A DNA stretch of 64,000 bases from an uncultured Clostridia bacterium (GCA_934792465.1 CAKVOK010000008.1:3206-67205), one strand, 5' to 3'; numbered from the stretch's first letter, positions 10,832-40,600 are shown. Numbers and translations: made by a program. Notes: generated by a model not told the origin, from the letters alone.

Positions 10832-10845
10832 AGAACGTTAGTTCT
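10832..10845. promoter_or_regulatory. LexA (Cheo/SOS) box 1
   Basis: AGAACGTTAGTTCT is a perfect GAAC-N4-GTTC palindrome. It lies immediately downstream of the -10 of the radical-SAM promoter. Confidence 0.65.
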
Positions 10846-10874
10846 ATTATACCACAAAACTTTTAATTTGTCAA
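10846..10874 (-). promoter_or_regulatory. Sigma-A promoter of the radical-SAM/TIGR03915 operon
   Basis: On the minus strand: TTGACA (10874-10869), 17 bp, TATAAT (10851-10846), with an extended TG. Confidence 0.6.
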
Positions 10875-10885
10875 ACATTTGTTCT
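10872..10885. promoter_or_regulatory. LexA (Cheo/SOS) box 2 (one core mismatch)
   Basis: CAAACATTTGTTCT (AAAC-N4-GTTC) overlaps the -35 of the radical-SAM promoter. Confidence 0.45.
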
Positions 10886-10909: not shown

Positions 10910-10938
10910 TTGACATTTTTTTTGCGTTATGATAAAAT
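10910..10938 (+). promoter_or_regulatory. Sigma-A promoter of the helicase operon
   Basis: TTGACA (10910-10915), 17 bp, TAAAAT (10933-10938), preceded by TGA (extended -10 like). Confidence 0.55.
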
Positions 10939-10956
10939 ATATATATCAGAATTTAT

Positions 10957-13900
10957 TTGAAAGGTAATGTTTTCGTGAATTTTTTAAGATTTGACAACAG
11001 CATTAATTTTAAACTTAATATTTATACCCGCATTAATTCCATTGCGTTTTCCGAAATGTGCGAAATATTCGGAAACAAGTCCGAACCGTCGAAAGAAATA
11101 AAGCTGATTTTTTCAGGCAAATATTCATTTGATACATACATATCAAACACAGGTAATGACAAAAACGAAATCAGTATCGTAATAGCGACAGACACGGACA
11201 AAAAGACAAACGCCGCTTTTTTGAAACCCCTGCAAGGATTTACAATATCTATGTTTGCCGTGGTAACCGATGACGGGATTTTTATTACGAAAGTGATAAA
11301 AGCGCCCGGAATCGTAGGCAATGTTTCAAACAGATGCGTAAAATGTGCCTTGACGTTCGATTCGACAGGGAACAACGGCGGCACACCGCTTCCGGAGGAT
11401 ATATGCGAAACGGTGCGGCAGCTTGCACCTATAGGTGCGAGCGATATTTCGGAGGATATTGCGGCGTGGGACGAGTATCTTAAAATAATGGAACGGTATG
11501 CGCATTTTGACGAATGTACAGTGAAATATTCTTCGGTAGAAAACGGAAAAAATCAGTTTTCCGTTGTGTTTTATACAGAAGAAAATAAGCTCAATCAGCA
11601 TCATATAAATTCATCCGTAATGCTTGTCGAACGCTGTTATGAAGAAAACGGCGATACCGTATTTTGCGGCGATATGTTCGGCACGATTACAGGATTTGAA
11701 AGCGACAGCATTACCGTGTTGCTTGATGAACCTTTCAAGGAAAACTTTGAATTTCCGAGAAACGGCGTTTTGCATATAACAAAACACGGCGATTTGGTTC
11801 AGATAAAGCGTATGCGCAGCGGACTTAAACGATTTTCAAACGGACGTGCATTGAACCCGTATCTCGATTTGTTCATGTTCAATTCGGCAAAGGCACGTGT
11901 TCCGAATAAGTTTATAGATTTGTCCGATGAGAAGCTTCTGATGAAAAATATGAATGAGGAACAGCGTAAAGCCGTCTGTGGCGCTTTGAGCAGCGAAGAT
12001 ATGTTCCTGATACAGGGACCGCCCGGAACCGGCAAAACCACGGCAATTGCGGAAATATGCTATCAAAATGCGCTTATGGGCAAAAAAACATTGATTGCCT
12101 CGCAAACAAATTTAGCCGTTGACAACGCATTGAGCAGACTTGCTTCAAACCCCAAAATCCGTGCGTTAAGACGAGGAAACGAAAAGTCCGTGCAACGGGA
12201 GGGACTTGCGTTTACGGAGGACAACGTTATTTCAACGTGGATTGAAAGAACAACGGCTGCCTGTAAAGAAAATTCGGAGAAATACGAAAAGACTATATTT
12301 GAGCTTGCGGAACTTGAAAAAGCACTTGAAAAGCCTTGCACACTTCACGAAAAATATATAAACGATACGGCGGAACGGCGTGATACCGCTTTGCGCAACA
12401 GGCTACTCGAAAAACTGCTGAATTTCGGAAAAAGGGATTGCGAAGAGCTGGAATGTGATATTGAAAAATTTAAGGAAAACCATGACAGTGCCGTTATAAA
12501 ACGTGCGCTTATGGCGGAACTTGGTGATTTCAAATGCAGCGAAACGGCGGCGGAGCTTCTGAACGAGAAGAAAAAAGCGCTTGAAGAAGCACTTGCAAAG
12601 TCCAACAGCGCAGTTACGGGAGTGGAACTTGTGCAAAACGCGCTTAAAACGGTGTCGGCTTGCAGGGAAAGCCTTGATCGTGCGTTTGAGATAACACGCC
12701 CCAAATATTCGGAATTTATATTAAATCCCGCAGTTCTCACAAAATCGGGAATTATGCAGCTTTATGCAGAACTTTCGACGCAGACGGACGATTTGCTGAA
12801 GCATATACCGGGCGGATTTTTCAGGATGTTCAATTTGTATGGCAGATGGAACAGAAAGGCTATGCCGATATATGAAAGACTGGTATGTGCGGAAGCTGAT
12901 TTGAAGCTTACTTTGCCGGTTTTTAAAGAGGAAGAACGTTTTGTTTTCGCAAAATATTCGGTTGACGAAAAAATTGAAGAGGCATACAGCACATTAAAAG
13001 AAATATCCGATGATTATAAAGCATATATAGAAACTCTGGAAACGGAACATAATGAGAATATCAGAAAATTAAAGGAGCTTTCGGATTTGGGCGAGGAACT
13101 CTTCGATGCCTTGCGTGAATTTGACAAAAAAATTCCCGAAAAATTCAAAAGAAAAACTCCGGAAGAAGCTATGCACGAAGAAAATTTGCGTGAATATTAC
13201 AAATCCGTATGGAGTACGGAGCTTTACTGTGCGCAGTCGCTGAAAGTGCTGACGCAGAAATGGATAAAGCGTATAAATTCGGGCAATCGTGAAGATTATG
13301 AGGAATTGAAACGGATTTATATCAATAACGCAAACGTAATAGGTATAACGTGCAGCGGCAGCGGCAGCAGTGAGTTTATGCAAAGTTATCCGGAGTTTGA
13401 TATGGTTATCATAGACGAGGTCAGCAAGGCAACACCACCGGAGCTTATTTTGCCGGCACTTAAAGCAAAAACAATTGTGTTGGTTGGCGACCATAAGCAG
13501 CTTCCGCCAATGATAGGCAGCGACACGTATGAGGAAATATCGGAAGAACTCGGCGATGAACGCCTGAACCGTATGAAAATAAGTCTTTTTGAAAGCCTGT
13601 ATCTTAATGCGCCGTCGGATTTGAAAGTAATGTTAAGAAAACAATATCGTATGCACAGCCAGATTATGAATACGATAAATCAGTTTTATGCGGAGGAAGG
13701 CGGGCTTATATGCGGTCTTGACGATGCTTGCCATGAGCATGGCATTGAAGGCGGATTTATAAAAAAAGATGTCCATGCCATGTGGGTATATACTCCGTAT
13801 GAATCGAGATTTAAAGAAAAAAGGGATGATACCAGCTTCTATAATGATTACGAGGTTCTGTGCATCGAAAAAATACTCGAACAGCTTAACGAAAATGCGA

Positions 13901-14265
13901 GAAGAAAAGGAATAAAAAAAGAAGTCGGTGTAATCACGTTTTATTCAGGGCAGACAGAACGGCTGTACGGCAGGATTTCGGACAGGCAGTTTGACAATCT
14001 TGATATACGCATAGGCACCGTGGACAAGTTCCAGGGCGTTGAAAAGCCTGTTATCATATGCAGCTTTGTGCGAAACAACCCGATGTGCGACATAGGATTT
14101 GCGAAAGACCCGCGGCGTATAAACGTTGCGCTTTCACGTGCGCAGGAGCTTCTGATTATAGTGGGGTGCAGCGAGATGTTCTGCATGGCGGACGAGAAAT
14201 ATGCCGCCGTATTTAATACCATTAAAGAAATCGGAGGTGATACCGATGCTCTGGACATCGTTTGA
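10957..14265 (+). CDS. Upf1/DNA2-NAM7-like superfamily-1 helicase with an unassigned N-terminal domain of about 330 aa and a long coiled-coil insertion
   Basis: Walker A LIQGPPGTGKTT, Ia LIASQTNLAVDN, II VIIDEVSKATPPE, III LVGDHKQLPP, then KQYRMHSQI, VITFYSGQ, GTVDKFQGVEKPVII and RRINVALSRAQ. The start is uncertain: TTG at 10957 or GTG at 10975, the latter preceded by AAAGG. Confidence 0.85.
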   Translation: MKGNVFVNFLRFDNSINFKLNIYTRINSIAFSEMCEIFGNKSEPSKEIKLIFSGKYSFDTYISNTGNDKNEISIVIATDTDKKTNAAFLKPLQGFTISMFAVVTDDGIFITKVIKAPGIVGNVSNRCVKCALTFDSTGNNGGTPLPEDICETVRQLAPIGASDISEDIAAWDEYLKIMERYAHFDECTVKYSSVENGKNQFSVVFYTEENKLNQHHINSSVMLVERCYEENGDTVFCGDMFGTITGFESDSITVLLDEPFKENFEFPRNGVLHITKHGDLVQIKRMRSGLKRFSNGRALNPYLDLFMFNSAKARVPNKFIDLSDEKLLMKNMNEEQRKAVCGALSSEDMFLIQGPPGTGKTTAIAEICYQNALMGKKTLIASQTNLAVDNALSRLASNPKIRALRRGNEKSVQREGLAFTEDNVISTWIERTTAACKENSEKYEKTIFELAELEKALEKPCTLHEKYINDTAERRDTALRNRLLEKLLNFGKRDCEELECDIEKFKENHDSAVIKRALMAELGDFKCSETAAELLNEKKKALEEALAKSNSAVTGVELVQNALKTVSACRESLDRAFEITRPKYSEFILNPAVLTKSGIMQLYAELSTQTDDLLKHIPGGFFRMFNLYGRWNRKAMPIYERLVCAEADLKLTLPVFKEEERFVFAKYSVDEKIEEAYSTLKEISDDYKAYIETLETEHNENIRKLKELSDLGEELFDALREFDKKIPEKFKRKTPEEAMHEENLREYYKSVWSTELYCAQSLKVLTQKWIKRINSGNREDYEELKRIYINNANVIGITCSGSGSSEFMQSYPEFDMVIIDEVSKATPPELILPALKAKTIVLVGDHKQLPPMIGSDTYEEISEELGDERLNRMKISLFESLYLNAPSDLKVMLRKQYRMHSQIMNTINQFYAEEGGLICGLDDACHEHGIEGGFIKKDVHAMWVYTPYESRFKEKRDDTSFYNDYEVLCIEKILEQLNENARRKGIKKEVGVITFYSGQTERLYGRISDRQFDNLDIRIGTVDKFQGVEKPVIICSFVRNNPMCDIGFAKDPRRINVALSRAQELLIIVGCSEMFCMADEKYAAVFNTIKEIGGDTDALDIV

Positions 14266-15802
14266 TTATATAGACGAAACCGTGAAAAAAGCGGTTCGCC
14301 TTATGCCGGGACTGGAGGCTGTGTCGTATAGGGAATTCAGCCTGCCGCTTGAATATTGCGAAGTTAAATTCAAAGTGAGCACCGGCAGAAAAGCAGATAT
14401 TACGGAACAATTTGTTTTGGAAAGCCTCGGATATAATTTTAAGGTAACACCGGCATTTTTGGCTAAAGTATTCGGTATTGACGGCGTATTTACGGAGGAA
14501 TGTGTAAAGCGGCTTAAGCGGCTTAAAATAGTCAAGGAAGAAGATGATTCCATACGGCTGACAAAGCTCGGAAAGGTATTTGCTTCCGGCGGATACCTGC
14601 CGGACGGCAGCGAGGAAAAAAGCATAGGCTTTTACTATGAGAAAAAATTCGGTATGTATTATATATCGGACAGCGGATTTTGTCCGATATACGATAAATA
14701 TGACAAGCTTACAATGCCGGAAAAGACAAAGTTTATAAGCAGAGAGCTTATAGTCGCAGCGGCAAAGGATAAGGGCGAAAATCCCGAAAATATCGGCGAG
14801 GGCAAAATAATAAACGAATTTGTAAGCTTTAATAAGACGCCGGCAGGCAAAACCGATTATATTGAAATATGGCTTTATGACATTGTGAACGAAAAGCTGA
14901 TATGCAAGATTTATGACAAGGCGAAAAGCATATTCCGTGACGATATGGCGGAATATATCGAAAACAGCGTATGCCCGGCAGACATAACGGTGAACGGCAT
15001 ATACGAAATAATTAAAGGCAATGAATACGCAAAAGAACCGAGCGAGCCTTTTAAAAGGGCAAGGCTTGTGTATGCGGACGCACGCTTTGAGGGGACAAGT
15101 ATAAACGATGATATTGTGCTTGCGGATTGTTTTGATATTGAAAAGTATTTTGATAAATATACGCAGAACATATCGGGCAGAATATATATGATTTCGCCGT
15201 GGCTTTACGGAGAGGTGTTCGACGAGAAAATGCTCGGAATCATAAAGAATGTCGATTTTATCGTAATCGGCAGAAACAAAGGTCTTATGAAAAGCGGCGA
15301 TACGGAAAATATGCTTTTGAATTCGACCGACAGCCGGGGAATACCGAACGTGCTTATTTGCAGTATTTTATCCGGAAACAAGGTGTTCTGCACAGAGAAC
15401 GTATATATGGAGGGAAGCACCGACTATACCGAACAGCAGGATTTTTATATGCCGGGCGAAACCGTATGCATATGCCGCAGCGGCGCATATTTCAAAAGGC
15501 TTGAAGATATGTTTCTCGAAACCGTGGAACGTGAAATTATAACAGATGATTCACGTAAAATTATAGCGTGTCTGAATTTTTGTCTTAAATGCGGAAAAGT
15601 GGATTTGATGAACAGACTGGCGGCAGCCGTTATAAATATGTTCAAAAATAATAAAACCGTAATTCGGAATGTGTTTGTATTTCTGAAAATAAACGGTATG
15701 CTGGAAATAAACGATGATAATAAGGATATGCTGAAATCGGTGGGTCTGACGGACGAAAATTATAATATACTGCACGAAAAATGGAGTTTTATATGGAACT
15801 GA
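14246..15802 (+). CDS. Hypothetical protein: predicted N-terminal winged-helix region plus C-terminal degenerate PLD-like region (helicase partner)
   Basis: GGAGG sits 8 nt before the ATG at 14246, and the gene overlaps the helicase stop by 20 nt. wHTH-like stretch: ITEQFVLESLGYNFKVTPAFLAKVFGIDGVFTEECVKRLKRLKIVKEEDDSIRLTKLG. PLD-like stretch: RIYMISPWLY...VDFIVIGRN...SGNKVFCTENVYMEGSTDYT. Functional assignment is inference only. Confidence 0.6.
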   Translation: MLWTSFDYIDETVKKAVRLMPGLEAVSYREFSLPLEYCEVKFKVSTGRKADITEQFVLESLGYNFKVTPAFLAKVFGIDGVFTEECVKRLKRLKIVKEEDDSIRLTKLGKVFASGGYLPDGSEEKSIGFYYEKKFGMYYISDSGFCPIYDKYDKLTMPEKTKFISRELIVAAAKDKGENPENIGEGKIINEFVSFNKTPAGKTDYIEIWLYDIVNEKLICKIYDKAKSIFRDDMAEYIENSVCPADITVNGIYEIIKGNEYAKEPSEPFKRARLVYADARFEGTSINDDIVLADCFDIEKYFDKYTQNISGRIYMISPWLYGEVFDEKMLGIIKNVDFIVIGRNKGLMKSGDTENMLLNSTDSRGIPNVLICSILSGNKVFCTENVYMEGSTDYTEQQDFYMPGETVCICRSGAYFKRLEDMFLETVEREIITDDSRKIIACLNFCLKCGKVDLMNRLAAAVINMFKNNKTVIRNVFVFLKINGMLEINDDNKDMLKSVGLTDENYNILHEKWSFIWN

Positions 15803-16224
15803 ACAATCTTAAAGAAAGTTATGTAAAAGACCTTGCGGATATTGAGAAAGAATGCTTTGAAGCACCCTGGACAGAAACGGCATTTTTAAAAGATATAACG
15901 AATGAAAATGCCGTATATTCCATAGCGGATGCGGACGGAAGTGCAATAGGATATATAGGCGGTTACGTTGCTTTCGATACCGTGTATATAAATAATATCG
16001 CAGTAAAATCAGATTACCGAAATATGGGAGTAGGCACTGCTCTGCTGAAAGATTTCATAAACAAAACGAAAAATAAAATACTTACGCTTGAAGTCCGAAA
16101 AAACAATACGGCGGCGATACATTTGTACAATAAATTCGGGTTTGATACGGTGGGCGAACGCAAAGGCTTTTATTCCAAACCGAAAGAGGATGCACTTATA
16201 ATGACAAGGGAGATTCAAGAATGA
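15793..16224 (+). CDS. rimI: GNAT acetyltransferase, ribosomal-protein-alanine N-acetyltransferase (RimI)-like
   Basis: DIEKECFEAPWTETAF..., NIAVKSDYRNMGVGTALL and LEVRKNNTAAIHLYNKFGF are typical of RimI-type GNATs. GGAG sits 6 nt before the ATG at 15793. Confidence 0.7.
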   Translation: MELNNLKESYVKDLADIEKECFEAPWTETAFLKDITNENAVYSIADADGSAIGYIGGYVAFDTVYINNIAVKSDYRNMGVGTALLKDFINKTKNKILTLEVRKNNTAAIHLYNKFGFDTVGERKGFYSKPKEDALIMTREIQE

Positions 16225-17357
16225 AACCGCTCGGTATAATATGCGAATACAATCCGTTTCATACGGGACATAAATATCAAATCGAGAAAACGCTCGAACG
16301 GTGCAACAGCGTTGTATGTGCGATGAGCGGCAGCTTTACGCAAAGAGGGGAAGCAGCGCTGTTTGATAAATATACACGTGCAAAATGCGCCGTGATGTGC
16401 GGTGCAAGTCTTGTGGTGGAGCTGCCGTTTTTTGCGGCGGTGTCAAGCGCAAATTATTTTGCGGAATACGGTGTTCGCCTTTTGTCGAGAATATGCTCCG
16501 GCATATCGTTCGGCAGTGAGTGCGGAAGCATTGAAGAACTGAAAAACCGAGGGGAAGCGTCGGCGGAAGAGATAAAGCAACGCCTTAAAGAGGGCAGAAG
16601 CTATGCGTCGGCGGTGTCTGTCGCAGACAGAGGCACTCCGAATGACATTCTCGGTATGGAATATCTGCGTGCAGCGGAAAAATATAATATGACGGCAATG
16701 ACTGTAAAACGCTGCGGAGAGGGATATGACAGCGAAAATGCGGCCGGAGATTTTATAAGTGCCGCCGCCTGCCGAAAATATGTTTTAAACGGCGAAATCG
16801 AGCGGATATTGAAGTATATCCCGAAAGAAGTTCGGTATATTTTTGAAGAATGTACGAAAAGCGGCGACTATGCCGTGACGCCGGATATTCTTGCGGTAAT
16901 ATTGCGGTATAATAAGAATGCTCTTGCGGATAATCCGTATATCAAAGAGGGAATAGAGAACCGATTTTACGAAGCGGCGGATATGTTCGTACACAACAGC
17001 GATATTCTTAGTTACGTCAAGTCGAAGAGATATACAATGACGATGCTTTCGAGGATTGCCGCCTGTGCGTATGTCGGACTGAAAAAGCAGGATTTTTTGA
17101 AATACATGAACGGCGGTGTCGAATATATACGTGTGCTTGCAGCCGATAAAAAAGGCATGGAAATCGTTTCGCAGCTGAAAAAGAACGGCGAAACGATTGT
17201 TGTAAATTACAGCGATTCAAAAAATCTGTCACCAATCGGAAAAGAAATATTCGAGCTTGAAAAAAAGGCTTCGGATATACGTCTGCTCGGCATGAAAAAT
17301 TCGGCATTGCAGAAAAACGAATATACAAATAAATTTGAAATCACGACACGTCCCTAA
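16221..17357 (+). CDS. tmcAL: tRNA(Met) cytidine acetate ligase TmcAL (UPF0348/DUF795 nucleotidyltransferase)
   Basis: N-terminal GIICEYNPFHTGHKYQI (HxGH nucleotidyltransferase motif) and the size match YlbM/TmcAL. ATGA overlap with rimI. Confidence 0.8.
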   Translation: MKPLGIICEYNPFHTGHKYQIEKTLERCNSVVCAMSGSFTQRGEAALFDKYTRAKCAVMCGASLVVELPFFAAVSSANYFAEYGVRLLSRICSGISFGSECGSIEELKNRGEASAEEIKQRLKEGRSYASAVSVADRGTPNDILGMEYLRAAEKYNMTAMTVKRCGEGYDSENAAGDFISAAACRKYVLNGEIERILKYIPKEVRYIFEECTKSGDYAVTPDILAVILRYNKNALADNPYIKEGIENRFYEAADMFVHNSDILSYVKSKRYTMTMLSRIAACAYVGLKKQDFLKYMNGGVEYIRVLAADKKGMEIVSQLKKNGETIVVNYSDSKNLSPIGKEIFELEKKASDIRLLGMKNSALQKNEYTNKFEITTRP

Positions 17358-29410: not shown

Positions 29411-29504
29411 GCAGGGCGATAAGGCACCGCACGAGCCTTTCAACTCCACAGCGCCCTGCGGCGTATAAAAGGTCATAATTGATTATTTGTGACCTTTTAT
29501 ACGC
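29411..29504 (+). other. Two abutting intercistronic stem-loops
   Basis: CCGCAGGGCG (29411-29420) pairs with CGCCCTGCGG (29451-29460). Directly after it, a perfect 15-bp stem pairs GCGTATAAAAGGTCA (29461-29475) with TGACCTTTTATACGC (29490-29504). There is no U-run, and the structure ends 10 nt before the next RBS. Confidence 0.5.
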
Positions 29505-29524
29505 TATGTGATTGGAGGAAAATC

Positions 29525-32473
29525 ATGAAAAAATTTTTATCTTTTATGCTTACTTTTGCTTTATGTTTTTGCGGTACGGCGTTTTGTTATACGCCGGAAT
29601 ATGATATATCATACGACACGGCGGAATCCCTCGGACATACGCTCACGGCAACGTATATCGAAAGAAGTCTGACGACATACGAGGACGGCAAGCCCATTTC
29701 CTGCGTATCGATATCAGGAAGCGACGGAGCGCTTATAAATATCGTGGATATAAACGCTGCGAAAGTCCTCCGTACATTTAAAATGGATTTTTCGGGGTAT
29801 TTCTATTTCGGAGCGGTAAACTACGAAAACTTCAATGTATATATGGGAATAGGAAGACACGTCGTGGAATATAATCCGACGACGAAGAAAGCGACAGACC
29901 TCGGAGCTGTACCGACAACAAATTCGGGAACGGTAAACGGTGCGGCCGTTGACTCCGAAACCGGCGATGTATTCGGTGTGGCAACTCCGTATTCGTATAT
30001 ATGGAAATACGATGTTTCGGAAAAGAAATTAAGCACTTTCACAACGACCCTTTCGGGTTCGGCGGGATTGAACGGGCTTGCAATATCGGGAAATTATATT
30101 TATGTTTATGCGCAGGACAGCAATAAAAACCCGGTTATGGCGAAAATTAACAAAGCGAATGCGTCGGACATTACATATATAAGCTTGCCTACAGATTTCG
30201 GCACGCCTACCTCCGTAGGTCAGATATATTCCGGCGGAAACCGCATAATAGCGCAGATAAACTCAAGCTCGGGTACATATATGAGGATTTACACTATCGA
30301 TACCGGCGTATGGGAAAAGACAAAATTTCAAATGGGTACGACAAGCATGACGGATATGTTTGAAAATAAGTTTTATTACGCATATAACGGCTATCTCTGT
30401 TCCATAGACGTAACAACGCTTAAGATTACGGAATACAGAAGTATAAGGATAGGCTCTCATCTGCGGGGAAACGGAATGTTCATAGAATATGAGGGTATGT
30501 CGGGATATTCTTTTGTAAATTCGCAGTACGGAGGAAATCTGTATGCCATAAACCCGGCACTCGGGAAATCGGTGCAAATACCGGTTACATTGAAAGGTGC
30601 GACAATAGCTCACAGAATTTCACGGCTCGGAGTGGACGGCAGAATATATGTCGGCGGCTTCAAGGCGTCAAGCGGTGCGGCAGTGAATCCCGATACGGGA
30701 GAAAAAGAAACATATGCTTCCGACCAGACGGAGGGCATAACCGGTTACGGTACGAAAATGTATCTCGGCGGATATGCCGGCGGCGATATATACGAGCTTG
30801 ATACCACGAAACCGTATAAAAATGATTATAAAAGCAATCCGAAAAAAATATGCACTATAGGCGAGAATCAGATAAGACCTTTCGACCTTGAAGTGCTGAA
30901 CGGCGGAAAGACTCTTGCCGTAGCGTCGCAATGCGTTGCCGGTGAATACGGCGGTGCGCTTACAATCATAAATCTTGATACATATGCAAAAAAGGTATAC
31001 AGAAATATTGTTGCCGACCAAAATCTTGTTACGGTTACGAGCAAGGGAACCAAGGTTTATGCCGGTTCTACGATAACGAGCGGCGGAAACCTTGCCCCGA
31101 AAGCGGACAATGCTCATGTGATTGCATTTGATACGGAAACAGAAACCGTTACGGCAGATGTCGAATTGAAAATACCCGGCTGCGACAAGTCCATACCTAT
31201 TGTAAAAGGACTTGTCACAGGAGCGGACGGCGATATATACGGATATACACCGGGAGCATATTTCGTTTTGGATTCCGAAACGCTGGAAATGAAGAGGTAC
31301 AATCTTTTTGACGAATCGCAGATTGAAACAGACCGTTCCGCTTCGCTTCAGCTATGGCACGAAACGTTTATGCAGTTCGACCCGACAAGCGGATATTTAA
31401 TAGTAAACGGAACGTTTGTAAATCCGATTACGCTGAAAGATATTGCAACACCTCCGCAGGACCTTGCTTCGGCAATGTTTGCCGGAATTTCGGAGAACGG
31501 CACGGCATATTTTGTGGATTCAAACACAACTTTGTATAAAATAAAGGTATTTTGCAATGAAGTGCCGAAAGAAATATATACGGAGAGTTTTGACGGCGGC
31601 GAAAGCACGGTATTTTCCAATGTGGGGCTCAGACGTCCGCAGGCATTGCCGACAGAATATATAAACGGCGCTGCGAGAATATGTGCCGGTATAGGCAGCG
31701 GATACGGTGACGGCGGATATAAAGACAAAAATTTGCGGTCATGCGAAATACTGAACAGCCGTATGAGCAGCGGTTATACCGGAAAGCTGATTGCAGCCGC
31801 AGATATAATGCTTGAAAAAGATAATATAACGGCGGTTTTGGCGCCGAGAGGAACTCATTACGGCGATTTCGGAGGACTTTATTTCGGATTCTGCGGAACA
31901 AATGTTGTAGCGCAAGACGAAACGGTCGGCAAGATAAGCGTCGGCAAATGGTACAGGCTGACGGCAAAATATAATATAACCGGAAGTACATGGTGCGGTG
32001 AATATTATCTTGACGGAGTGAAAGTCGGTGAGGCACAGACATCATACAGTGTTCCGTGCGTTTCCTTAAGTCTGAATATAAACGTTAATGCAGATGAATC
32101 AACGACTACGGAAACACGCTTCGACAGCAGGGGAGAATATTTCAGAATAGATAATCTCGCCGTATCAGCAGACGAAGATTTGTATGAAAGCTACAGCGGC
32201 GGTGTTTTCGGGAAATTCGATATGAACACGGAATTTTCGGAGAAATACGCAACAACGCATATCAGCGCAGGATTCTTTGAGAATGCCGAGGGCAATATTT
32301 ATACCGCATATTACAGCGGCGGAAAGCTTGTAAAGGCTGAAAAAACACCGTTTAATGTTAAAAAATACAGAGATGCGTATTTTGTGACAGATACGGAAAA
32401 TTGTGATGAAACAAAGGTTTTTGCATGGGGAGCGGACGGCGAACCGAAATGCATACCGAATATCAAACAATAA
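29525..32473 (+). CDS. Secreted protein: beta-propeller-like core of about 690 aa, LamG-like module, C-terminal tail
   Basis: GGAGG sits 6 nt before the ATG at 29525, followed by a signal peptide. Blade-like motifs recur (GNYIYVYA, GGNLYAIN, DGRIYVGG, GGDIYELD, GTKVYAGS, DGDIYGYTPG). The C-terminus carries WYRLTAKYNI...YYLDGVKV...EYFRIDNLAVS. Confidence 0.6.
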   Translation: MKKFLSFMLTFALCFCGTAFCYTPEYDISYDTAESLGHTLTATYIERSLTTYEDGKPISCVSISGSDGALINIVDINAAKVLRTFKMDFSGYFYFGAVNYENFNVYMGIGRHVVEYNPTTKKATDLGAVPTTNSGTVNGAAVDSETGDVFGVATPYSYIWKYDVSEKKLSTFTTTLSGSAGLNGLAISGNYIYVYAQDSNKNPVMAKINKANASDITYISLPTDFGTPTSVGQIYSGGNRIIAQINSSSGTYMRIYTIDTGVWEKTKFQMGTTSMTDMFENKFYYAYNGYLCSIDVTTLKITEYRSIRIGSHLRGNGMFIEYEGMSGYSFVNSQYGGNLYAINPALGKSVQIPVTLKGATIAHRISRLGVDGRIYVGGFKASSGAAVNPDTGEKETYASDQTEGITGYGTKMYLGGYAGGDIYELDTTKPYKNDYKSNPKKICTIGENQIRPFDLEVLNGGKTLAVASQCVAGEYGGALTIINLDTYAKKVYRNIVADQNLVTVTSKGTKVYAGSTITSGGNLAPKADNAHVIAFDTETETVTADVELKIPGCDKSIPIVKGLVTGADGDIYGYTPGAYFVLDSETLEMKRYNLFDESQIETDRSASLQLWHETFMQFDPTSGYLIVNGTFVNPITLKDIATPPQDLASAMFAGISENGTAYFVDSNTTLYKIKVFCNEVPKEIYTESFDGGESTVFSNVGLRRPQALPTEYINGAARICAGIGSGYGDGGYKDKNLRSCEILNSRMSSGYTGKLIAAADIMLEKDNITAVLAPRGTHYGDFGGLYFGFCGTNVVAQDETVGKISVGKWYRLTAKYNITGSTWCGEYYLDGVKVGEAQTSYSVPCVSLSLNINVNADESTTTETRFDSRGEYFRIDNLAVSADEDLYESYSGGVFGKFDMNTEFSEKYATTHISAGFFENAEGNIYTAYYSGGKLVKAEKTPFNVKKYRDAYFVTDTENCDETKVFAWGADGEPKCIPNIKQ

Positions 32474-32497
32474 ATAATCATGAAAGGAAAGAAGAAT

Positions 32498-35011
32498 ATG
32501 TTAAAAAGGTTTATGGGAATCTGCCTTGCGGCGATAATGCTTGCCGCAACGGTATCAGCTGCCGAGGATACGGCAAGGGAAGAAGTGGCATACGGAAAAC
32601 CGCAGTCGCTTGGTTATACCCTTACGGCGGCATATACAGAGCGTTCACTCACGACGCTTGAGGACGGGAAACCGATTACCTGTGTTTCCGCTTCGACGAC
32701 GGAGGGTGCAATTATAAATGTTGTAGACATTGACGATGAAAAATTATTGCGCACATTTAAAATGAAATTCAGCGGATATATGTATTTCGGAGCTGTAAAC
32801 CACGAAACACATATTGTATATATGGGTATCGGAAACCACCTTGTGGAATACAATCCCGAAACGAAAAACGTTACAGACCTTGGTAGGGTTCCGACAACAA
32901 ATTCGGGAAATGTAAACTGGGCGGCAATTGATTATGAAACCGGCAATGTCTGGGGAGCAGCTTCCGTATACTCCGGTATATGGAAATTTGATGTTAAGAC
33001 ACGGCAGCTTTCTACATTTAAGACTATGGTAGATGGAGATACAAAGGGCATAGGCGGAATAGATATTTTAAACGGCTATCTGTATGTACGCGGACAAAAT
33101 TCCGACAGAAAAGAATGCCTTGCAAAAATAAACAAAGACAATGCGGACGACGTAACTTATTACGACCCGCCGTCATATCTCACGAACGTGACGAGTATAG
33201 GACAGATATACGCCGGCGGCAAATATATAATAGCACGAATTGATGCGGCGGAGGGAACGTGGAACTGCATTTTCAACACGGAAACGGAAAAATGGGAGGA
33301 CACGAAGTTTCAGGCGCATACAACGAGCATGACGGATATTTATGACGGCAAATTCTATTATTTATATGACCGGTATATCCATTCGATTGATATGGAAACT
33401 CTCGAATTTGAGGAATTTCCGGATTTGAAATACGGCTCTCACCTGCGAGGAAACGGTATGTTTGTGGAATTAAGCGACCCGGAAATGCCCGGATATTCGT
33501 TTATAACCGCCCAATACAGCGGCAATATATACGCACTTAACACCCAAAGCCAAAAGATGAAGAAAATTGATGTTGTACTCGTCGGCGGGCCGCTTATTCA
33601 CAGAATTTCAAGGCTCGGCAATGACGGCAGGATATATGTCGGCGCATTCAAAGGTTCTGTAGCTGCTGCCGTAAATCCGAATACCGGTGAAAAAGAATAT
33701 TTTTCCGGAGAACAGCCGGAGGGTATGTTCCCGTGGAAAGATAAAATGTTTGTCGGAGCATATGCCGGCGGAGATATTTATATGTTAGATACAACAAAAC
33801 CGTACAGCCTCGGAGTACATGATATAAATTCGGGAATGAACCCCGTAAAGCTGTGTACAATCGGTGAGGAACAAAACAGACCTTTCGATATAGACGTTGC
33901 GGAGGACAGAATCCTTGTTGCGGTATCGCAGCCGCACGCCGGAGAATACGGCGGCGCGCTTACTCTTATCGACCTCGAAACCTATGAAAAACACGTATTC
34001 AGAAACCTTGTCGAAAATCAAAGTCTGCTGACTGTATGCACGAAAGGAAATATCGCATATTTCGGTACAAGCATTACAAGCGGAGGAAATGCGAAGCCAT
34101 TAGCAAACAATGCGCACGTTACGGCGTTCAATGTCGATACGCATGAGGTAGTTCGTGATGTGGAGCTTAAAATACCCGGCTGTGCGAAAGCAATTCCCTG
34201 GGTAAGAGGATTGGTTATCGGACCGGACGGCGATTTGTACGGATATACACCCGGCGGATATTTCGTAATGAATCCCGACACGCTCGAAATAAAACGTTCC
34301 AATATGTTTGACGACAGTCAGATTATAACGGACAGAAGCGATACATTGCAGCTTTGGCATCAGACGCAGATGGAATTTGACAAACGCACGGGATATTTGA
34401 TAGTAAACGGTACGTTTGCAGACCCGGATACTCTCGAAAATGTATTAACACCTCCGGCAGAATTGAAAGACGCTATGTGGGCGGGAACAGACGATAATAA
34501 TATGGCATATTTCGTTGACACTTCGACAACGCTGTACAAAGTACCAATGATATACGGTGATGATAAATCATATCTGATAAGCGATATGACGTTCCTGCTC
34601 GGAAACAAGCTTTATTCGTCGGGAACAGCCTCTGATATTGCCGTATACAAAGAAAACGGCAGAACAATGGTGCCGGTAAGGCTGTTTGCGGCGGCTATGG
34701 GAGCAAGTGTGAATTATGATGCGGAAACAAGCACTGTCGAACTCACCAATGCCGACGGAAAAAGTCTTAAGTTTATTACAAATGACAACAAGACGGTAAA
34801 CGGCAATGGCGAAGTAAAGAAAATAGGTGCTGTGCTTAAAGAGGAAAACGGTGTTTCGTATCTTCCTCTCCCATACTTTGCGGAGTTCTGCGGAAAAGAA
34901 ACGGTAAACGGCGAATACGGAACGGTGTTCATTACGGATAAGGGCAAAAATATAAACGACAATCCGGCTGCGCTTGAATATATTTACAGCGAATTATGCG
35001 GCGAAAAATAA
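32498..35011 (+). CDS. Secreted paralogue of the preceding beta-propeller-like protein with a C-terminal copper-amine-oxidase-N-like (stalk) domain
   Basis: It is collinear and highly similar to the previous gene over about 690 aa (for example HRISRLG.DGRIYVG.FK, AGGDIY.LDTTKPY, AGEYGGALT, ELKIPGC.K.IP). The C-terminus VPVRLFAAAMGASVNYDAETSTVELT...SYLPLPYFAEFCG is typical of Cu_amine_oxidN1 stalk domains. The start could be 32480 or 32498; the latter has an AGGA upstream. Confidence 0.6.
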   Translation: MLKRFMGICLAAIMLAATVSAAEDTAREEVAYGKPQSLGYTLTAAYTERSLTTLEDGKPITCVSASTTEGAIINVVDIDDEKLLRTFKMKFSGYMYFGAVNHETHIVYMGIGNHLVEYNPETKNVTDLGRVPTTNSGNVNWAAIDYETGNVWGAASVYSGIWKFDVKTRQLSTFKTMVDGDTKGIGGIDILNGYLYVRGQNSDRKECLAKINKDNADDVTYYDPPSYLTNVTSIGQIYAGGKYIIARIDAAEGTWNCIFNTETEKWEDTKFQAHTTSMTDIYDGKFYYLYDRYIHSIDMETLEFEEFPDLKYGSHLRGNGMFVELSDPEMPGYSFITAQYSGNIYALNTQSQKMKKIDVVLVGGPLIHRISRLGNDGRIYVGAFKGSVAAAVNPNTGEKEYFSGEQPEGMFPWKDKMFVGAYAGGDIYMLDTTKPYSLGVHDINSGMNPVKLCTIGEEQNRPFDIDVAEDRILVAVSQPHAGEYGGALTLIDLETYEKHVFRNLVENQSLLTVCTKGNIAYFGTSITSGGNAKPLANNAHVTAFNVDTHEVVRDVELKIPGCAKAIPWVRGLVIGPDGDLYGYTPGGYFVMNPDTLEIKRSNMFDDSQIITDRSDTLQLWHQTQMEFDKRTGYLIVNGTFADPDTLENVLTPPAELKDAMWAGTDDNNMAYFVDTSTTLYKVPMIYGDDKSYLISDMTFLLGNKLYSSGTASDIAVYKENGRTMVPVRLFAAAMGASVNYDAETSTVELTNADGKSLKFITNDNKTVNGNGEVKKIGAVLKEENGVSYLPLPYFAEFCGKETVNGEYGTVFITDKGKNINDNPAALEYIYSELCGEK

Positions 35012-35027
35012 AATAATTTCCGTTTGA

Positions 35028-35066
35028 CGGCTTATCTGCCCATGATAAGCCGCCGGGAGATTTTTT
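35028..35066 (+). terminator. Possible terminator after the second propeller gene
   Basis: CGGCTTATC (35028-35036) pairs with GATAAGCCG (35044-35052). A T6 run follows 8 nt downstream, which is non-canonical spacing. Confidence 0.35.
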
Positions 35067-35102
35067 ATAAATACCTGTGGGCAGAAAGGCTATGGAATCA
35101 TT

Positions 35103-37673
35103 GTGAAAATAAGAAATATTATACTCAGCTTTATTTTGGTTGTTTCATTTATAATACCGACGTTCGGCGTAACGGCATATGATGACGTTTCGGACTACAC
35201 GGAGGAAATAAACCTGCTTACCCGTATGGGATTTATGGACGGCGAAACAAGCGATTTGTTCTATCCGGACGATAAGATAGACAGAGCCGAAACCGTTAAA
35301 ATACTTATGCGCCTGCGCAATCTCCCAAGCGGCGGCGACGGCGAACAGCGCTTTATTGATGTTAAAAAAGATTATTATGTATTTGATGAAATAGATTCCG
35401 CCGTTGTAAACGGATATATCGGTGTGCCGGCAGACAGAAAATTCAATCCGGAAAGCCCGATTACGGCGGAGGACGCACTTTCGATACTTCTTCGGATAAT
35501 GAATTACGGAATATATCTCGATTCAACGGGAAAATCCGTTATAGCAACGGCTTCGGACGCAGGACTTCTTAAGGGCGTACGCCTTTCGGGAGGATATATC
35601 ACAAAAGGTCAGCTGGCGGCAGTTATATACAATTCGTTTTCATGCGGAATGCCGGAAATATCTTCCGTTTCCTCGGATTCCACAAAGCTTGACAGCAGCG
35701 ACAAGACCACGCTTTCGTATCATGATATGAAGCTGATAAAAGGCGTTGTAACATCGACCGATGTGTCCGGAATATATTACAGTGCAAAGCCGCTTGCAAA
35801 AGGCAAGATAATGATAGGCGATACCGAATATATCAGAACGTCCGAAGAACAAACGGAGTATCTCGGATATGCCGTGGACGCAATAATAACGGACGATTCT
35901 GAAGAAACGACTCAAAAGCTTCTGTATTGTCTGCGCAGCGAAAACAACACGGAAGAAACCATAGATTTGGAAGATATAACGGACGTAAACGGCTACAAAA
36001 TATCTTACAGCACGAACGACAGAAAGAAAACTTTGAATCTGAAGGAAAGGGATTGTATAATATACAACGGCACGGCGGTTAAATACAGCCCGGATTATAT
36101 AAAAGATGCCAACGGCACAATAACTACACTCGAAAACGCTTTTGCGGAACGAATCGTATTTATAGATTCGTATGTGAGCTACGGTGTGGCTTCCGTAAAC
36201 ATAAACGAAAAGCAAATAAACCTTGCGAACGGAACATTTAATAACAAAACATATATAGACCTCGATAACGACGATTATAAGGCGATACGTATTTATATGG
36301 ACGGTGCGGAAATAAGTTTTTCCGATATTTTAATCGGCGACGTAATAAGCGTTATGGGGTCGGATAGATTTATAAAAATAATCAACTGCCGAAGCGCACG
36401 TGAAATATCCGTAAGCGGCATAACCGATGATGATAAAGTGATGGCGGACGGCAAGGAATACGAAATAGGCAAATATTGCACCGGCAAGGATATTTTAAAT
36501 ATCGGTACATCATTTTCGGTAACGCTTGATGTATACGGCAGAATTATGTCGTTTAAGAAAATATCCGAAACCGATGTCTACGGCTGCATACTCAAAACGA
36601 AGTATGAAGATGCGGAGGACAAAGGATATGTAAAGATTCTCGATGCGGATTCAAAGATAAATTCATACGAATTTACAGATAAGGTTAAATATACAAATGG
36701 TGATAAGATAAAAAGAATTTCCGCAAAAGAGGTTTGCGGCCTTATCGGAAATATTCAGGTAATCAAATATGTAAAAGACGGTTCGGGAAAGATAAAAGAG
36801 GTTAAACAGGCTGCGGACATAACGGACGACCTGCGTTATAACGAACAGATATTTACAAAATATCAGATAGCTTCCGCAAGGGCAAGCTATGTATCAATTG
36901 CCGGCGTCGGTTACGGAAATTGTAACGTATTTGTCGTACCGAATGCAGACGACAGCGGAAATGTGGACGAAAAAGGCTGCGGCGTGAAGCTCGGTTATTT
37001 CTCCGGCGGTTCAAACTACAACAGTATTACATTTTATGATGTGGGAACGGACGGTATGGCGAAAGCAGGTCTTGTGCGTGCAAATTCCGGTTCGAAAATA
37101 GACAACTATGCGGCAGGTCTTATACTCGTTGAAAAGACGGGCAAGGTACTCGGCAGCGACGAAACCGAGAAAACGGCTGTAATAGGTTACAGCGGCGGAA
37201 ACCGCGTTACATATGCGGTAGCGGATAATTATTCCGGCGATTTTAATCCGGAGGATTTGAGTCTCGGCGACCTCATACTTATTGCAACCGATTCAAGGGG
37301 CGAAATAGGCAATATTCTTGTTTGCTACGATGACAGTGCAAACGTATGGGGAAACACAACGAATGCCGGTGCAGGTCAGTATTATACGGTTGAATGCTCG
37401 GTATATCACGGAACAGTGCGTTATTTCGACGGCAATACGCTGACGCTGGAATTCGGCGGCACACTGGCACAGCACCCCTACGGAACGTTTTTCCCGCAGA
37501 TGACAAACACGGTAAGTTCTGTTTATTATGTAAATAGGGAAACAAAAAAGATTTCTATGGGCGACATGAGCAAGATTGCGTCGAACAACTATTACAACGG
37601 CGCTGTCGGCTCGGAAGTTGTAACACGTTCAAACAGAGGCGGAGTTCAGGAGGTTGTGGTATATGAGAACTAA
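35103..37673 (+). CDS. Cell-surface protein with three N-terminal SLH domains and a large uncharacterised beta-rich body
   Basis: GTG start and signal peptide. SLH-like repeats: YDDVSDYTEEINLLTRMGFMDGETSDLFYPDDKIDRAETVKILMRL, then FIDVKKDYYVFDEIDSAVVNGYIG...FNPESPITAEDALSILLRI, then a third. Confidence 0.65.
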   Translation: MKIRNIILSFILVVSFIIPTFGVTAYDDVSDYTEEINLLTRMGFMDGETSDLFYPDDKIDRAETVKILMRLRNLPSGGDGEQRFIDVKKDYYVFDEIDSAVVNGYIGVPADRKFNPESPITAEDALSILLRIMNYGIYLDSTGKSVIATASDAGLLKGVRLSGGYITKGQLAAVIYNSFSCGMPEISSVSSDSTKLDSSDKTTLSYHDMKLIKGVVTSTDVSGIYYSAKPLAKGKIMIGDTEYIRTSEEQTEYLGYAVDAIITDDSEETTQKLLYCLRSENNTEETIDLEDITDVNGYKISYSTNDRKKTLNLKERDCIIYNGTAVKYSPDYIKDANGTITTLENAFAERIVFIDSYVSYGVASVNINEKQINLANGTFNNKTYIDLDNDDYKAIRIYMDGAEISFSDILIGDVISVMGSDRFIKIINCRSAREISVSGITDDDKVMADGKEYEIGKYCTGKDILNIGTSFSVTLDVYGRIMSFKKISETDVYGCILKTKYEDAEDKGYVKILDADSKINSYEFTDKVKYTNGDKIKRISAKEVCGLIGNIQVIKYVKDGSGKIKEVKQAADITDDLRYNEQIFTKYQIASARASYVSIAGVGYGNCNVFVVPNADDSGNVDEKGCGVKLGYFSGGSNYNSITFYDVGTDGMAKAGLVRANSGSKIDNYAAGLILVEKTGKVLGSDETEKTAVIGYSGGNRVTYAVADNYSGDFNPEDLSLGDLILIATDSRGEIGNILVCYDDSANVWGNTTNAGAGQYYTVECSVYHGTVRYFDGNTLTLEFGGTLAQHPYGTFFPQMTNTVSSVYYVNRETKKISMGDMSKIASNNYYNGAVGSEVVTRSNRGGVQEVVVYEN

Positions 37674-40600
37674 AATATTATCAATTTTGCTTGCGGCTGT
37701 GTTGATTTTCGGCGGCAACTGCATGGCACAGGATTTTGAATACAGCTGGAATTTCGACAGTGCGGATATTCCGGAATATTTTTCCGCAAATACATCAAGA
37801 AAGCTTGAAGTAATAAACGATGCTCCGGGAACGGGTGCGGAAAGCGGAAACCATGCCTTTGCATGGGTTCGTTCCGGAAATACGAAAGGCAACGGAGTAC
37901 TCGGAGCATCGACCGACGGATATAATATCGGAAAAGATGTTATGGGCTGTATAAACGATACAACGCTTGTATACAGCGTAAGCTTTAAATCCATGAACAA
38001 ATCTATGCATTCGTATATTGCCGCACCGAGATTCGGCGAAAATGCGGAATTTATATTGCCTGTTAAAATTGAGGACGGCAGCCTTTATTTCGGCGACACT
38101 CAAACAGGTGAAATAAAAACGGGCGAATGGACGACTGTCGGCGTGAAATATGAGCTTTCCTCAGAAAACGGCGTAACGGCTACGTTATATGCGGACGGAG
38201 AAGAAAAAGCTTCGCAGACGGACGATTCGGACAGTGCCAAAGCCGGTATCGTATATTTTTCTCTGCTTGGCGTAGGCAAAACAACTACGGAAGAATATCT
38301 TGCCGAGCAGACGGCAAAAGGACGAAATGAAATCGTATATTTTGATGATTTGTATATCGGAAACGATTTAAGCAAGCTTGCGGCAAACTTTTCGGTTGTG
38401 TCTGTAAAGCACACTATGAAAACGCCGGGCAATATTACGGTAAGCTTCAATAAGGAAATTGACGAATCCTCCTTTTCTTCTGATTTTATTACGGTTGAGG
38501 GGAGAGAGATAAGGTCGTATACATTCGGTGATGATAAAAAGACTGTTTTGCTTACGCTGAACAGCCCTCTTGAAATCGGCACGGAATACAGCATTACATT
38601 CAGCACGGATATAAAGGATATATCCGGCAATGCGCTGCCGAAAGAAACAACCGTAAGTATCACTGCGGTAATAGACCCCGGCGTAAACAGAAGCTGGAAT
38701 TTCGATAATTTAACCGATATGCCGGACGGCTTTAAATATAATAATAAATCAGTACCTCTCGTGCTTGCGGAAAGCGGCAGAAGCGGTGATGACAAATGCT
38801 TCGGCTGGCTTGCCGGAATAGGTAACGGTGCCGGCAGCGGCAATGTTGACAAATATTCAAACGGTGTAGTGATTTTGCGTGACGAATATGACGGCGGCAA
38901 GATAAACAACGTTACGATTGCCGTGGATTATGATTTTAAATTTAAAATAGATTATATGTGCGCATGGATGCTTCAGCCGATATTTGCCGGCGGCGAATTT
39001 ACACCGGTTTCTATGTCGGAAAACAATGTGTATTTCAACGGCGAGCTGTTGGGACATATTGAAAAAGATACATGGCACAACATAGGTGTGGTATACAATC
39101 TTTCGTCAACGGACGGACTCAAAATGGATATATACCTTGATTCGGTGAAAAAAGTATCGGATTATACGGTTTCAAATTCTGTTACAAGGTCGGGAATAAG
39201 CTGTTTCAGAATACTCCAACTTCCCAATACTCCGGCAGAGCTTGCGGCGCAATATCCGAGATTCGATACACGTAACGAGTATTATTTTATGGATAATCTC
39301 TATATCGGAGAGGATACGGGAAAAGCATATCCGAATCAGTCGGTTGCATCCGCTTCTCCGGAAAACGGCAGCAAAGACGTTGATATTTCAAGCAATATTA
39401 CATTGAAATTTGCGGCAGACCTTGACGAAAGCACAATATCGGATATAACACTCAGTGATGAAAACGGAAATTCCGTTCCGGCAGAAAAAACACTTGCCGA
39501 ATCCGATACGGTTGTTATTACGCCGAGCAGCAATCTTTTATACGGAACGAATTATAAATTAACTGTACCGAAAGAAGTGAAATCCACCGAGGGCAAAAGT
39601 ATGGCGGAAGATGCGAAGATAAGCTTCAAGACCGCTACAAATTACGATTTTGAAATAGACGCCGTATCGCAAGACGGCGGTATAACGGTTGACGTATCGA
39701 ATAAATCGTATCTCAAAAATAATGTATATGCGGCTGCGATAACGAAAAAAGACGGAAATATCACGGGAATGCAGATTAAGAATGCCGAAATTCAGACTAC
39801 GGGGAAAATCGAATTTGATGCTGCTGGCGAGGGCGAAACGCCGAGCATAATTCTGTTTGACAATGAATTTAATATTATGTCCGCGCCATGGTATGAAAAT
39901 GTTAAAACCTCGTGCATAGATTATTCAAAAACTTCACTGAATGCCGAAGCGGTAACGCAGGATAAGAAAATTACGATAAGCGGAACGGCAGAACCGAAAA
40001 ACGGATTTGTAATATGCAAGGTTACCAAAAGCGGCAAAAACGTATCTTCCGAAAATGCGGACGATTATATATTAATTGATGTATGCACGCCGGACGATAA
40101 CGGAAATTATTCGTTTACAGCACCGGTGACGGAGCTGAACGGCGAATATGAATATGCCGTATCCGCATACGGTACGGAAGCAATCAAAGGAAAAATCTCA
40201 TATGCGCTTGCGACGGATAATAAGATAGAAAGCTTCAGCCTGAACGGAACTGCGTGTTCGATAAGCGGAACTGCGGCAAGCGTTTCGATAAACGGTGATT
40301 TGTCGGGTCTTATTGCCGAATTTAAGCTTTCGGATAAAGCGTATATCATGCTGAACGGCGAAAGACTGGAAAGCGGAAAATCAAGAATAGATTGCAGAAA
40401 CAGCGTTGTGCTGACGGTATATTCCGAGGCCGGCGAAAGCAGAGAATACACTCTGCGGGTTTCCGGCGGCTCATCATCCGGTTCGGGCGGCTCCGGCAGT
40501 TCGTCAGGCGGCGGAAGTGTCAAGAAGCCGGTAACAGCTTCCGTAGATACCGGTATAATTAAAAAGCCGGAAATCGCAGACCCGATTGATTACGGCACAT

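Follow-up and report, generated by a model that had tools for sequence, protein, structure and literature searches.

Two adjacent + strand genes of an uncultured Clostridia bacterium, encoding an Upf1-type superfamily 1 (SF1) helicase and a partner protein with a phospholipase D (PLD) fold, are a variant of the Mokosh type I anti-phage system, neither a full member of it nor a new system. They lie within a 64,000-nucleotide (nt) stretch of DNA (GCA_934792465.1, CAKVOK010000008.1:3206-67205), and the whole of that stretch is what we call the window. In the Mokosh systems that have been tested, the helicase's ATP site and the PLD protein's active site are both required for defence (bioRxiv 10.1101/2022.05.11.491447); Mokosh is among the commoner anti-phage systems, and its mechanism is otherwise unknown (bioRxiv 10.1101/2025.07.10.664194). 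By homology, the window pair is a relative of Mokosh type I that falls short of membership on the active PLD nuclease. Our best explanation, to which we give a probability of about 0.6, is that the locus is a diverged, nuclease-dead relative of Mokosh type I that probably acts without cleaving nucleic acid.

An initial annotation of this locus, made from the sequence alone, had remarked on the resemblance to Mokosh, and our searches bear this out: the helicase matches the Mokosh protein MkoA at an expectation value (E) of 8e-112, and the partner is a remote relative of MkoB. The same annotation had held that the pair fits no described system. That view has to be given up, since both proteins are homologous to MkoA and MkoB, and the lack of a kinase domain is not disqualifying.

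The helicase is MkoA-like, its N-terminal region included

Two PADLOC protein models for MkoA match the helicase, PDLC03920 at E 7.8e-112 and PDLC03921 at E 4.6e-106. Its Pfam domains are AAA_11 and AAA_12 (E 1e-45), and the solved structures nearest to it are those of IGHMBP2, Upf1/NAM7 and DNA2. The motifs GPPGTGKT, DE, GDHKQLPP, QYRMH, TVDKFQG and RRINVALSRA can be read in the translation, the SF1 set being complete and the ATPase motifs intact. Families, nearest structures and motifs all agree with the Upf1/DNA2-like SF1 class first proposed for this protein. The insertion that interrupts RecA1 after Walker A is the fastest-evolving part of the helicase (73-85% identity, against 94-98% in the core); it matches no specific Pfam family, and we assume it to be helical or coiled-coil in character.

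The first ~330 residues had been described as showing no nuclease motif and as assignable to no family, and it is only the former statement that stands. No nuclease or kinase motif is visible in this N-terminal region, which has no Pfam match and, with matches up to E 10 admitted, no kinase family among them. However, tblastn against plasmids matches helicase residues 46-345 to the MkoA genes of CP024913.1 (E 2e-17) and AP018308.1 (E 9e-16), and in a five-sequence alignment the entire N-terminal region lines up collinearly with what precedes the helicase domain in the plasmid MkoA proteins, the motifs GD(L/I)VQI(K/Q)R and NP(Y/F)L..F.F...AR being common to them. Thus, this region is an MkoA domain rather than an orphan one. 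The full-length helicase of a more distant locus, L090, has the domain too (38% identity over 449 amino acids, aa).

A profile of the N-terminal region gave only chance matches, a search of JGI metagenome contigs with its alignment turned up no relatives, and a word-indexed protein search with it returned one fragment. An AlphaFold2 model of helicase residues 1-345, built from the window sequence and one fragment, reached a predicted local distance difference test (pLDDT) score of 31.6, which is too low to use. Among the Pfam matches of the helicase at E up to 0.01 there is no kinase family, as the initial annotation had said.

The partner is a remote MkoB protein without the catalytic motif

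Profile comparisons place the partner within the MkoB family, as a genuine if distant member. Taken singly, it has no Pfam (E up to 0.01) or NCBIfam match, and its direct match to the PADLOC MkoB model is weak (E 1e-7, residues 26-125 only). A word-indexed protein search found only five relatives, 78-99% identical to it, and querying with a 30-sequence alignment added none. An exhaustive HMMER search with the alignment of the window clade returned 61 representatives among 1.84 billion proteins, so the family is rare. In an alignment of the window partner with 29 relatives, nine of its sequences being without the catalytic His, all 30 match PADLOC MkoB (best E 1e-37) and 23 match Pfam PLDc_2. 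When the window clade was compared by hhalign with 30 relatives whose HKD motif is intact, 450 columns aligned at a probability of 100% (E 3.4e-41).

Most of the distant relatives keep the canonical HxKx4Dx6GS, for example HNKEIIVDDKIHLAGSFNW, where the window partner has GNKVFCTENVYMEGSTDY. In the hhalign comparison a gap stands in the His column, and in that register N takes the place of K, T that of D, and D that of N. The His is missing at the HKD position in the window partner and in all five of its close relatives (6/6 sequences). As the PLD catalytic motif has been lost, the pair is without a recognisable nuclease.

The AlphaFold2 model of the partner on the 30-sequence alignment has a pLDDT of 83 and a predicted template modelling (TM) score of 0.70. 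Foldseek comparison of this model with the PDB places TrmBL2 and TrmB at the top (E 8e-6); matches of the PLD fold are to NucT (6ehi, TM-score 0.57-0.60) and Nuc (1byr), then to PLD1, FAM83, vaccinia F13 and PPK1, while residues ~52-105 match winged helices of the MarR, DtxR and TrmB types. Model, Foldseek and motif table agree with the winged helix and degenerate PLD domain lacking the catalytic His that had been predicted for this protein. A profile of the partner matched no PDB sequence, and a search of BFVD gave only generic winged-helix matches (E > 0.03). As a search with the helicase likewise found no relatives among IMG/VR viral contigs, there is no sign of a phage-borne origin for the pair.

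The C-terminal helical region of the partner contains a CX3CX2C motif, CLNFCLKC, at 15569-15592 (residues 442-449). It is probably not a metal site, and was rejected as one, being invariant only within the clade of 78-99% identity and absent in the more distant relative P0006.

Comparison with Mokosh type I and its plasmid-borne representatives

The window pair shares with Mokosh type I its arrangement, in which the gene of a COG1112/Upf1-like SF1 helicase comes first and that of a PLD-family protein lies next to it, and its helicase has both the pre-helicase domain and the RecA1 insertion of plasmid MkoA. It differs from type I in that its partner lacks an intact HxKx4D active site and its helicase lacks a Ser/Thr kinase domain, which the original description of type I places in the helicase gene (bioRxiv 10.1101/2022.05.11.491447). 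At 1096 and 518 aa, the window proteins are also shorter than their counterparts of 1478-1626 and 594-621 aa, and the window locus is chromosomal, syntenic, joined to rimI-tmcAL and outside any defence island.

The closest annotated records are pairs on pCHL69-1 of Cyanobacterium sp. HL-69 (CP024913.1) and plasmid1 of Aulosira laxa NIES-50 (AP018308.1). Their MkoA proteins, of 1626 and 1478 aa, match the MkoA model at E 4e-114 and 3e-116 respectively, the same level as the window helicase, and the MkoB genes follow with a 23-nt overlap (MkoB model E 1e-30 and 2e-34). Gene order is the same as in the window, and the window partner matches the pCHL69-1 MkoB at E 4e-9. Neither plasmid MkoA has a Pfam kinase match; the kinase domain is therefore not universal, and its lack does not disqualify the window helicase. 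Unlike the window partner, the plasmid MkoB proteins keep HAKEVIVD...GS(H/N)N and match PLDc_2. The plasmid pairs, unlike the chromosomal window locus, sit on mobilizable or conjugative plasmids, their neighbours being type I restriction-modification, toxin-antitoxin and XerD genes, or GajB-like and Upf1-like helicases. On pCHL69-1 (L093, CP024913.1 34000-56000) the 1626-aa MkoA and 594-aa MkoB are annotated only as hypothetical proteins; this pair is flanked by type I restriction-modification with five toxin-antitoxin pairs, and by XerD, with an SNF2 helicase gene further downstream.

Two other described systems do not fit. Mokosh type II is a single polypeptide, MkoC, with the helicase at its N-terminal end and the PLD domain at its C-terminal end, where the window has two separate overlapping open reading frames (ORFs), and the MkoC match covers only part of the helicase (E 1e-32). 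As for Nhi, which joins a nuclease domain to an Upf1-like helicase, no Nhi model is among the PADLOC matches at E up to 0.01, and the helicase has no N-terminal nuclease family.

A PLD-dead clade remains paired with the helicase

In a neighbour-joining tree of profile-aligned partner sequences, the window clade falls with P0006, P0010, P0008, P0025, P0020 and P0036 in one clade, all of them without the His, and the sister of this clade is formed by the HKD-intact P0007 and P0012. Members of the clade outside the close relatives are only 20-35% identical to the window partner, so the loss of the motif is old. In contig look-ups, the gene directly upstream overlaps each looked-up partner by ~17-29 nt. 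In L002, L005, L006, L007, L088 and L090-092 this gene is a homologous helicase, its identity to the window helicase being 41-57% in the comparisons made; in L089 (P0020), too, an upstream gene overlaps the partner. No compensating nuclease domain is visible in the window pair, helicase and partner being no longer than their HKD-intact counterparts. We found no description of PLD-dead Mokosh variants in open-access literature text.

Some of these loci deserve individual mention. The helicase ORF of L088 has 624 aa, the C-terminal part only; the gene is probably split or truncated, and it was left out of the N-terminal comparison. In L006 (3016-7087) the PLD-dead pair is immediately followed by ZacA (E 2e-95) and ZacB (E 1.5e-91) of the Azaca system and by IS21 genes (an IstB-family gene and a second, putative IS21 ORF), which gives the nuclease-dead clade a defence-island context. 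In L090 (497-6391 and 12068-17487) the pair of P0036 sits amid many small ORFs without a Pfam match; the PADLOC hints in its surroundings are weak (AbiEi E 2e-4, BrxA E 7e-4), and these may be an uncharacterised mobile or defence region.

Distribution and selection within the lineage

The genome closest to that of the window is from an uncultured Oscillospiraceae bacterium, and near-identical contigs occur in samples that include human gut metagenomes. Species-representative genomes were scanned with the adjacent radical-SAM gene as anchor, yielding 80 loci at 56-89% identity, in only two of which, L008 (the closest) and L012, did the best segment reach at least 64%. Helicase and partner are present only in L008 among these anchored loci; beside the radical-SAM gene, the pair is absent from 78 other loci of more distant species. 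Thus the pair is not a conserved companion of the repair operon, and is confined to a narrow lineage.

Five independent contexts (L001, L003, L004, L095 and L096) retain the block of helicase, partner and rimI, the overlap of partner and rimI included. In four of the five, tmcAL follows rimI; in L001 its place is taken by YoaP and DUF6273 genes, which lie on the opposite strand. Upstream of the pair, L095 has an AraC-type regulator instead of the radical-SAM genes.

Against three orthologous loci, the ratio of non-synonymous to synonymous substitution rates (dN/dS) is 0.05-0.06 for the helicase, 0.06-0.08 for the partner and 0.06-0.12 for the dead PLD-like domain, and these values are no higher than those of tmcAL (0.08) and rimI (0.08-0.18), with the caveat that synonymous divergence exceeds 1, near or above saturation, which makes all of them approximate. 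The pair is under strong purifying selection in every domain, the dead PLD-like domain included. Its amino-acid divergence equals that of its neighbours, which fits vertical co-inheritance.

Gene boundaries, promoter and transcription unit

The coordinates of the locus are collected in Table 1. The ORF listing gives a helicase frame of 1102 aa (10957-14265) and a partner frame of 533 aa (14201-15802), both on the + strand. A length of ~1100 aa had been reported for the helicase, which is right for the frame. However, a GAAAGG ribosome-binding site (RBS, 10959-10964) and a GTG start at 10975 are kept across the alignment with L001 and L004, and the orthologous protein begins there, so that the helicase has 1096 aa.

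Table 1. Features of the helicase-partner locus, with positions in the window
Feature	Position	Strand	Evidence
Two LexA-type GAACN4GTTC boxes	10833..10884	.	pattern search
Sigma-70-type promoter, TTGACA-17-nt spacer-TAAAAT, upstream TG	10910..10938	+	consensus scan, 11/12 matched
MkoA-like Upf1-type SF1 helicase, 1096 aa	10975..14265	+	PADLOC, Pfam, solved-structure matches
N-terminal pre-helicase domain, ~330 aa, common to MkoA proteins	10975..11961	+	tblastn, five-sequence alignment
Walker A, GPPGTGKT	12016..12039	+	translation
Insertion, ~350 aa, between Walker A and remainder of RecA1	12244..13296	+	gap between two AAA_11 stretches
Walker B, DE of VIIDEVS	13414..13419	+	translation
GGAGG RBS of partner	14233..14237	+	within 3' end of helicase gene
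MkoB-like partner, 518 aa: winged helix, beta-rich middle, PLD-fold pseudo-nuclease domain, C-terminal helical bundle	14246..15802	+	
Winged helix-turn-helix, partner residues ~52-105	14399..14560	+	AlphaFold2 secondary structure, Foldseek
PLD-fold domain, partner residues ~290-420	15113..15505	+	Foldseek; aligns with relatives' PLDc_2-positive domain
Degenerate HKD site GNKVFCTENVYMEGS	15374..15418	+	motif table; relatives: HxKEIxVDxxxHLxGS(F)N
rimI, ribosomal protein S18 alanine N-acetyltransferase	15793..16224	+	TIGR01575 128.7 bits, cutoff 86.4
tmcAL-type HIGH_NTase1 nucleotidyltransferase gene	16221..17357	+	Pfam PF05636, E 1e-94

The partner starts at the ATG at 14246, overlapping the helicase stop by 20 nt, and the two genes are translationally coupled; both this overlap and the partner's own GGAGG RBS are as first annotated. 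The consensus promoter assigned to the pair is likewise present. Both of its hexamers are kept in L001 and L004 despite intergenic indels of 26 and 75 nt, and conservation is base for base in L001, whose proteins are 82-83% identical to those of the window (99% in L004). To judge from its sequence, this promoter is strong and constitutive-looking. The RBSs, the gene overlaps and the promoter of the pair are all conserved.

Nevertheless, the pair is no orphan, and it is probably not the two-gene operon that had been proposed. The start of rimI at 15793, with its own GGAG, lies inside the partner gene (10-nt overlap), rimI and tmcAL have 4 nt in common, and a promoter scan found no promoter-like site on the + strand in 15000-17357. 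From these overlaps and the absence of an internal promoter-like site, helicase, partner, rimI and tmcAL probably form a four-gene transcription unit read as one transcript, with tmcAL as its last gene. A hairpin at 14244-14260 was considered as an intergenic terminator and rejected: with only 5 pairs and a position within the coding overlap, it is such as chance alone would produce. The G+C content of the pair is the same as that of its flanks, and a horizontal-transfer signature was rejected, there being no anomaly.

The neighbours of the pair in the window are mgsA, the TIGR03915/TIGR03916 radical-SAM repair pair, rimI and the tmcAL-type gene, in keeping with the housekeeping context, free of mobile-element genes, that the initial annotation had described. 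It had also placed the pair divergently from a LexA-boxed repair operon, and indeed a perfect box, GAACGTTAGTTC, lies at 10833-10844 and a one-mismatch box at 10873-10884. Both are conserved in L001, and they cover the promoter of the TIGR03916/TIGR03915 radical-SAM/DUF4130 repair operon, a perfect one that reads divergently on the minus strand (10874-10846). They stop 26 nt upstream of the helicase -35, clear of the helicase promoter; that LexA and the SOS response control the helicase operon is therefore unsupported, and was rejected.

Precedents for a binding rather than a cleaving partner

The best whole-model Foldseek matches of the partner, TrmB and TrmBL2 (PDB 5bpd, 5box, 3qph and 2f5t), resemble it in that a winged helix at the N-terminus precedes a domain without catalytic function; the match to TrmB 2f5t is to the isolated C-terminal sugar-binding domain. 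The C-terminal domain of TrmB has a PLD-like fold. These proteins are thus a precedent for a winged helix and pseudo-PLD protein that binds rather than cleaves. The likeness is structural only, as the window partner has no Pfam TrmB match and the whole-chain TM-scores are low (0.2 and 0.37), and the TrmB proteins, unlike the window partner, have no helicase partner. The PLD-like domain of the partner also matches the FAM83 (DUF1669) domain (5qhm and 5lzk, TM-score ~0.52). FAM83 domains are PLD folds without catalytic activity that serve as binding scaffolds. Unlike the window partner, they are eukaryotic, unrelated in sequence, and without a winged helix or a helicase partner.

The MOV10L1-Zucchini/PLD6 pair of the animal piRNA pathway likewise combines an Upf1-like helicase with a single-HKD PLD protein, a likeness of shared families only. 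In contrast to the dead PLD domain of the window, Zucchini/PLD6 is an active nuclease with its HKD intact. This pair has been proposed as a relative of Mokosh (bioRxiv 10.1101/2022.12.12.520048).

Proposed mechanism and alternative explanations

We propose that helicase and partner form a complex in which the partner would be a pseudo-enzyme that binds nucleic acid or a ligand, with a targeting or regulatory role exercised through its winged helix and pseudo-PLD pocket, as the TrmB/TrmBL2 and FAM83 precedents suggest, and would direct or gate the helicase. The ATP-driven 5'-3' helicase would then be the sole catalytic activity of the pair, and would deal with RNA or DNA that is foreign or aberrant through unwinding, protein displacement or stalling and not through cleavage. 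In the gut Oscillospiraceae lineage the pair is inherited vertically, and it probably shares one transcript with rimI and tmcAL. Its role in defence is something that we infer, and it may be either defending or domesticated.

Several points weigh against a nuclease-dead Mokosh relative acting in this way. PLD active-site mutants of the tested Mokosh systems lose defence, and so a PLD-dead pair may not defend. No mobile-element gene adjoins the pair in the window, where the neighbours are housekeeping genes, and no defence genes lie near it; within its lineage it is syntenic and evolves at core-gene rates. All of this is unusual for a defence system. The initial annotation had named a universally conserved, syntenic core module without defence or mobile neighbours as an outcome telling against a defence role, and within the narrow lineage this is in part what we find; distant relatives, unlike the window locus, lie on plasmids and in defence islands. 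The evidence for a complex is confined to the gene overlap and conserved pairing. The N-terminal domain of the helicase may have a cryptic effector activity. The degenerate motif can be aligned in two registers, one residue apart, and the shifted register keeps a Lys and an acidic residue, though neither supplies a His. Finally, the neighbour-joining tree is a rough one.

Ranked next, and clearly less probable than a diverged Mokosh relative, is the possibility that the Mokosh-derived pair has been domesticated and does a housekeeping job in this lineage, no longer serving phage defence; it might work in quality control linked to RNA or translation, or in the tolerance of DNA damage. The overlapping frames with rimI, which all five related contexts keep whatever their upstream neighbour, favour this, as do the failure to find an internal promoter-like site, the divergence and dN/dS equal to those of the flanking core genes, the unremarkable G+C content, the loss of the nuclease motif and the position beside a LexA-boxed repair operon. 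However, the LexA boxes do not reach the helicase promoter, and the linkage to rimI-tmcAL could merely mark an insertion point. Moreover, occurrence in one narrow lineage, with the pair absent from the 78 other loci, is unlike the distribution of a widely needed function, and another PLD-dead pair adjoins Azaca and IS21 genes while HKD-intact relatives lie in plasmid defence islands.

Two further explanations turn on the lost motif. That the pair is a nuclease-competent Mokosh type I, whose partner cleaves with the help of non-canonical residues or of a second PLD subunit with which it pairs, we consider improbable. The PLD fold is kept under purifying selection, and the register that retains a Lys and an acidic residue (G-N-K...E) would leave some of the site in place; yet in none of the six clade sequences is there a His at or next to the nucleophile position, K, D and N are replaced where hhalign has a gap for the His, and the operon has no second PLD gene. 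PLD-family nucleases act through a phosphohistidine intermediate, which their mechanism needs (bioRxiv 10.1101/2025.07.10.664194). Loss of the catalytic motif would also be expected of an inactivated defence system drifting into pseudogenes, but the selection analysis effectively refutes decay: dN/dS is 0.05-0.08 over a synonymous divergence above 1, with the dead domain included. Neither frame is broken in any relative examined, the helicase retains its motifs, and the loss is ancient, common to a clade that is only 20-35% identical and still helicase-paired. Of these explanations, we prefer the diverged, nuclease-dead Mokosh relative.

Other observations in the window

Elsewhere in the window, a perfect GAACN4GTTC box, GAACACTTGTTC, lies at 41580-41591. 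It precedes by ~100 nt an ORF of 529 aa (41690-43279), which is without a Pfam match and could be a further SOS-regulated gene. At 29489-41127 there are four large + strand genes in a row. The first (994 aa) has no Pfam match, and the other three, with Cu_amine_oxidN1, SLH and Big_5 domains, probably encode cell-wall-anchored surface proteins.

Implications

If the pair is merely a weak or inactive Mokosh relative, it is of modest interest. The retention by selection of a PLD-dead clade together with its helicase means, on the other hand, that the MkoB scaffold does something besides catalysis, which could be to bind, to target or to regulate the helicase, and the clade offers natural separation-of-function variants with which to dissect Mokosh. 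A bolder proposal, which we put forward tentatively and think rather doubtful, is that the window pair is a domesticated, nuclease-independent RNA- or DNA-surveillance complex wired into rimI-tmcAL, an operon of the translation apparatus, and that the whole PLD-dead MkoB clade represents a helicase-only mode of Mokosh that remodels or stalls its target without cleaving it. The vertical inheritance of the pair and its joining to rimI-tmcAL make it a possible example of the domestication of a defence module, and such domestication would bear on the origin of eukaryotic Upf1/MOV10-type pathways from systems of this kind (bioRxiv 10.1101/2022.12.12.520048).

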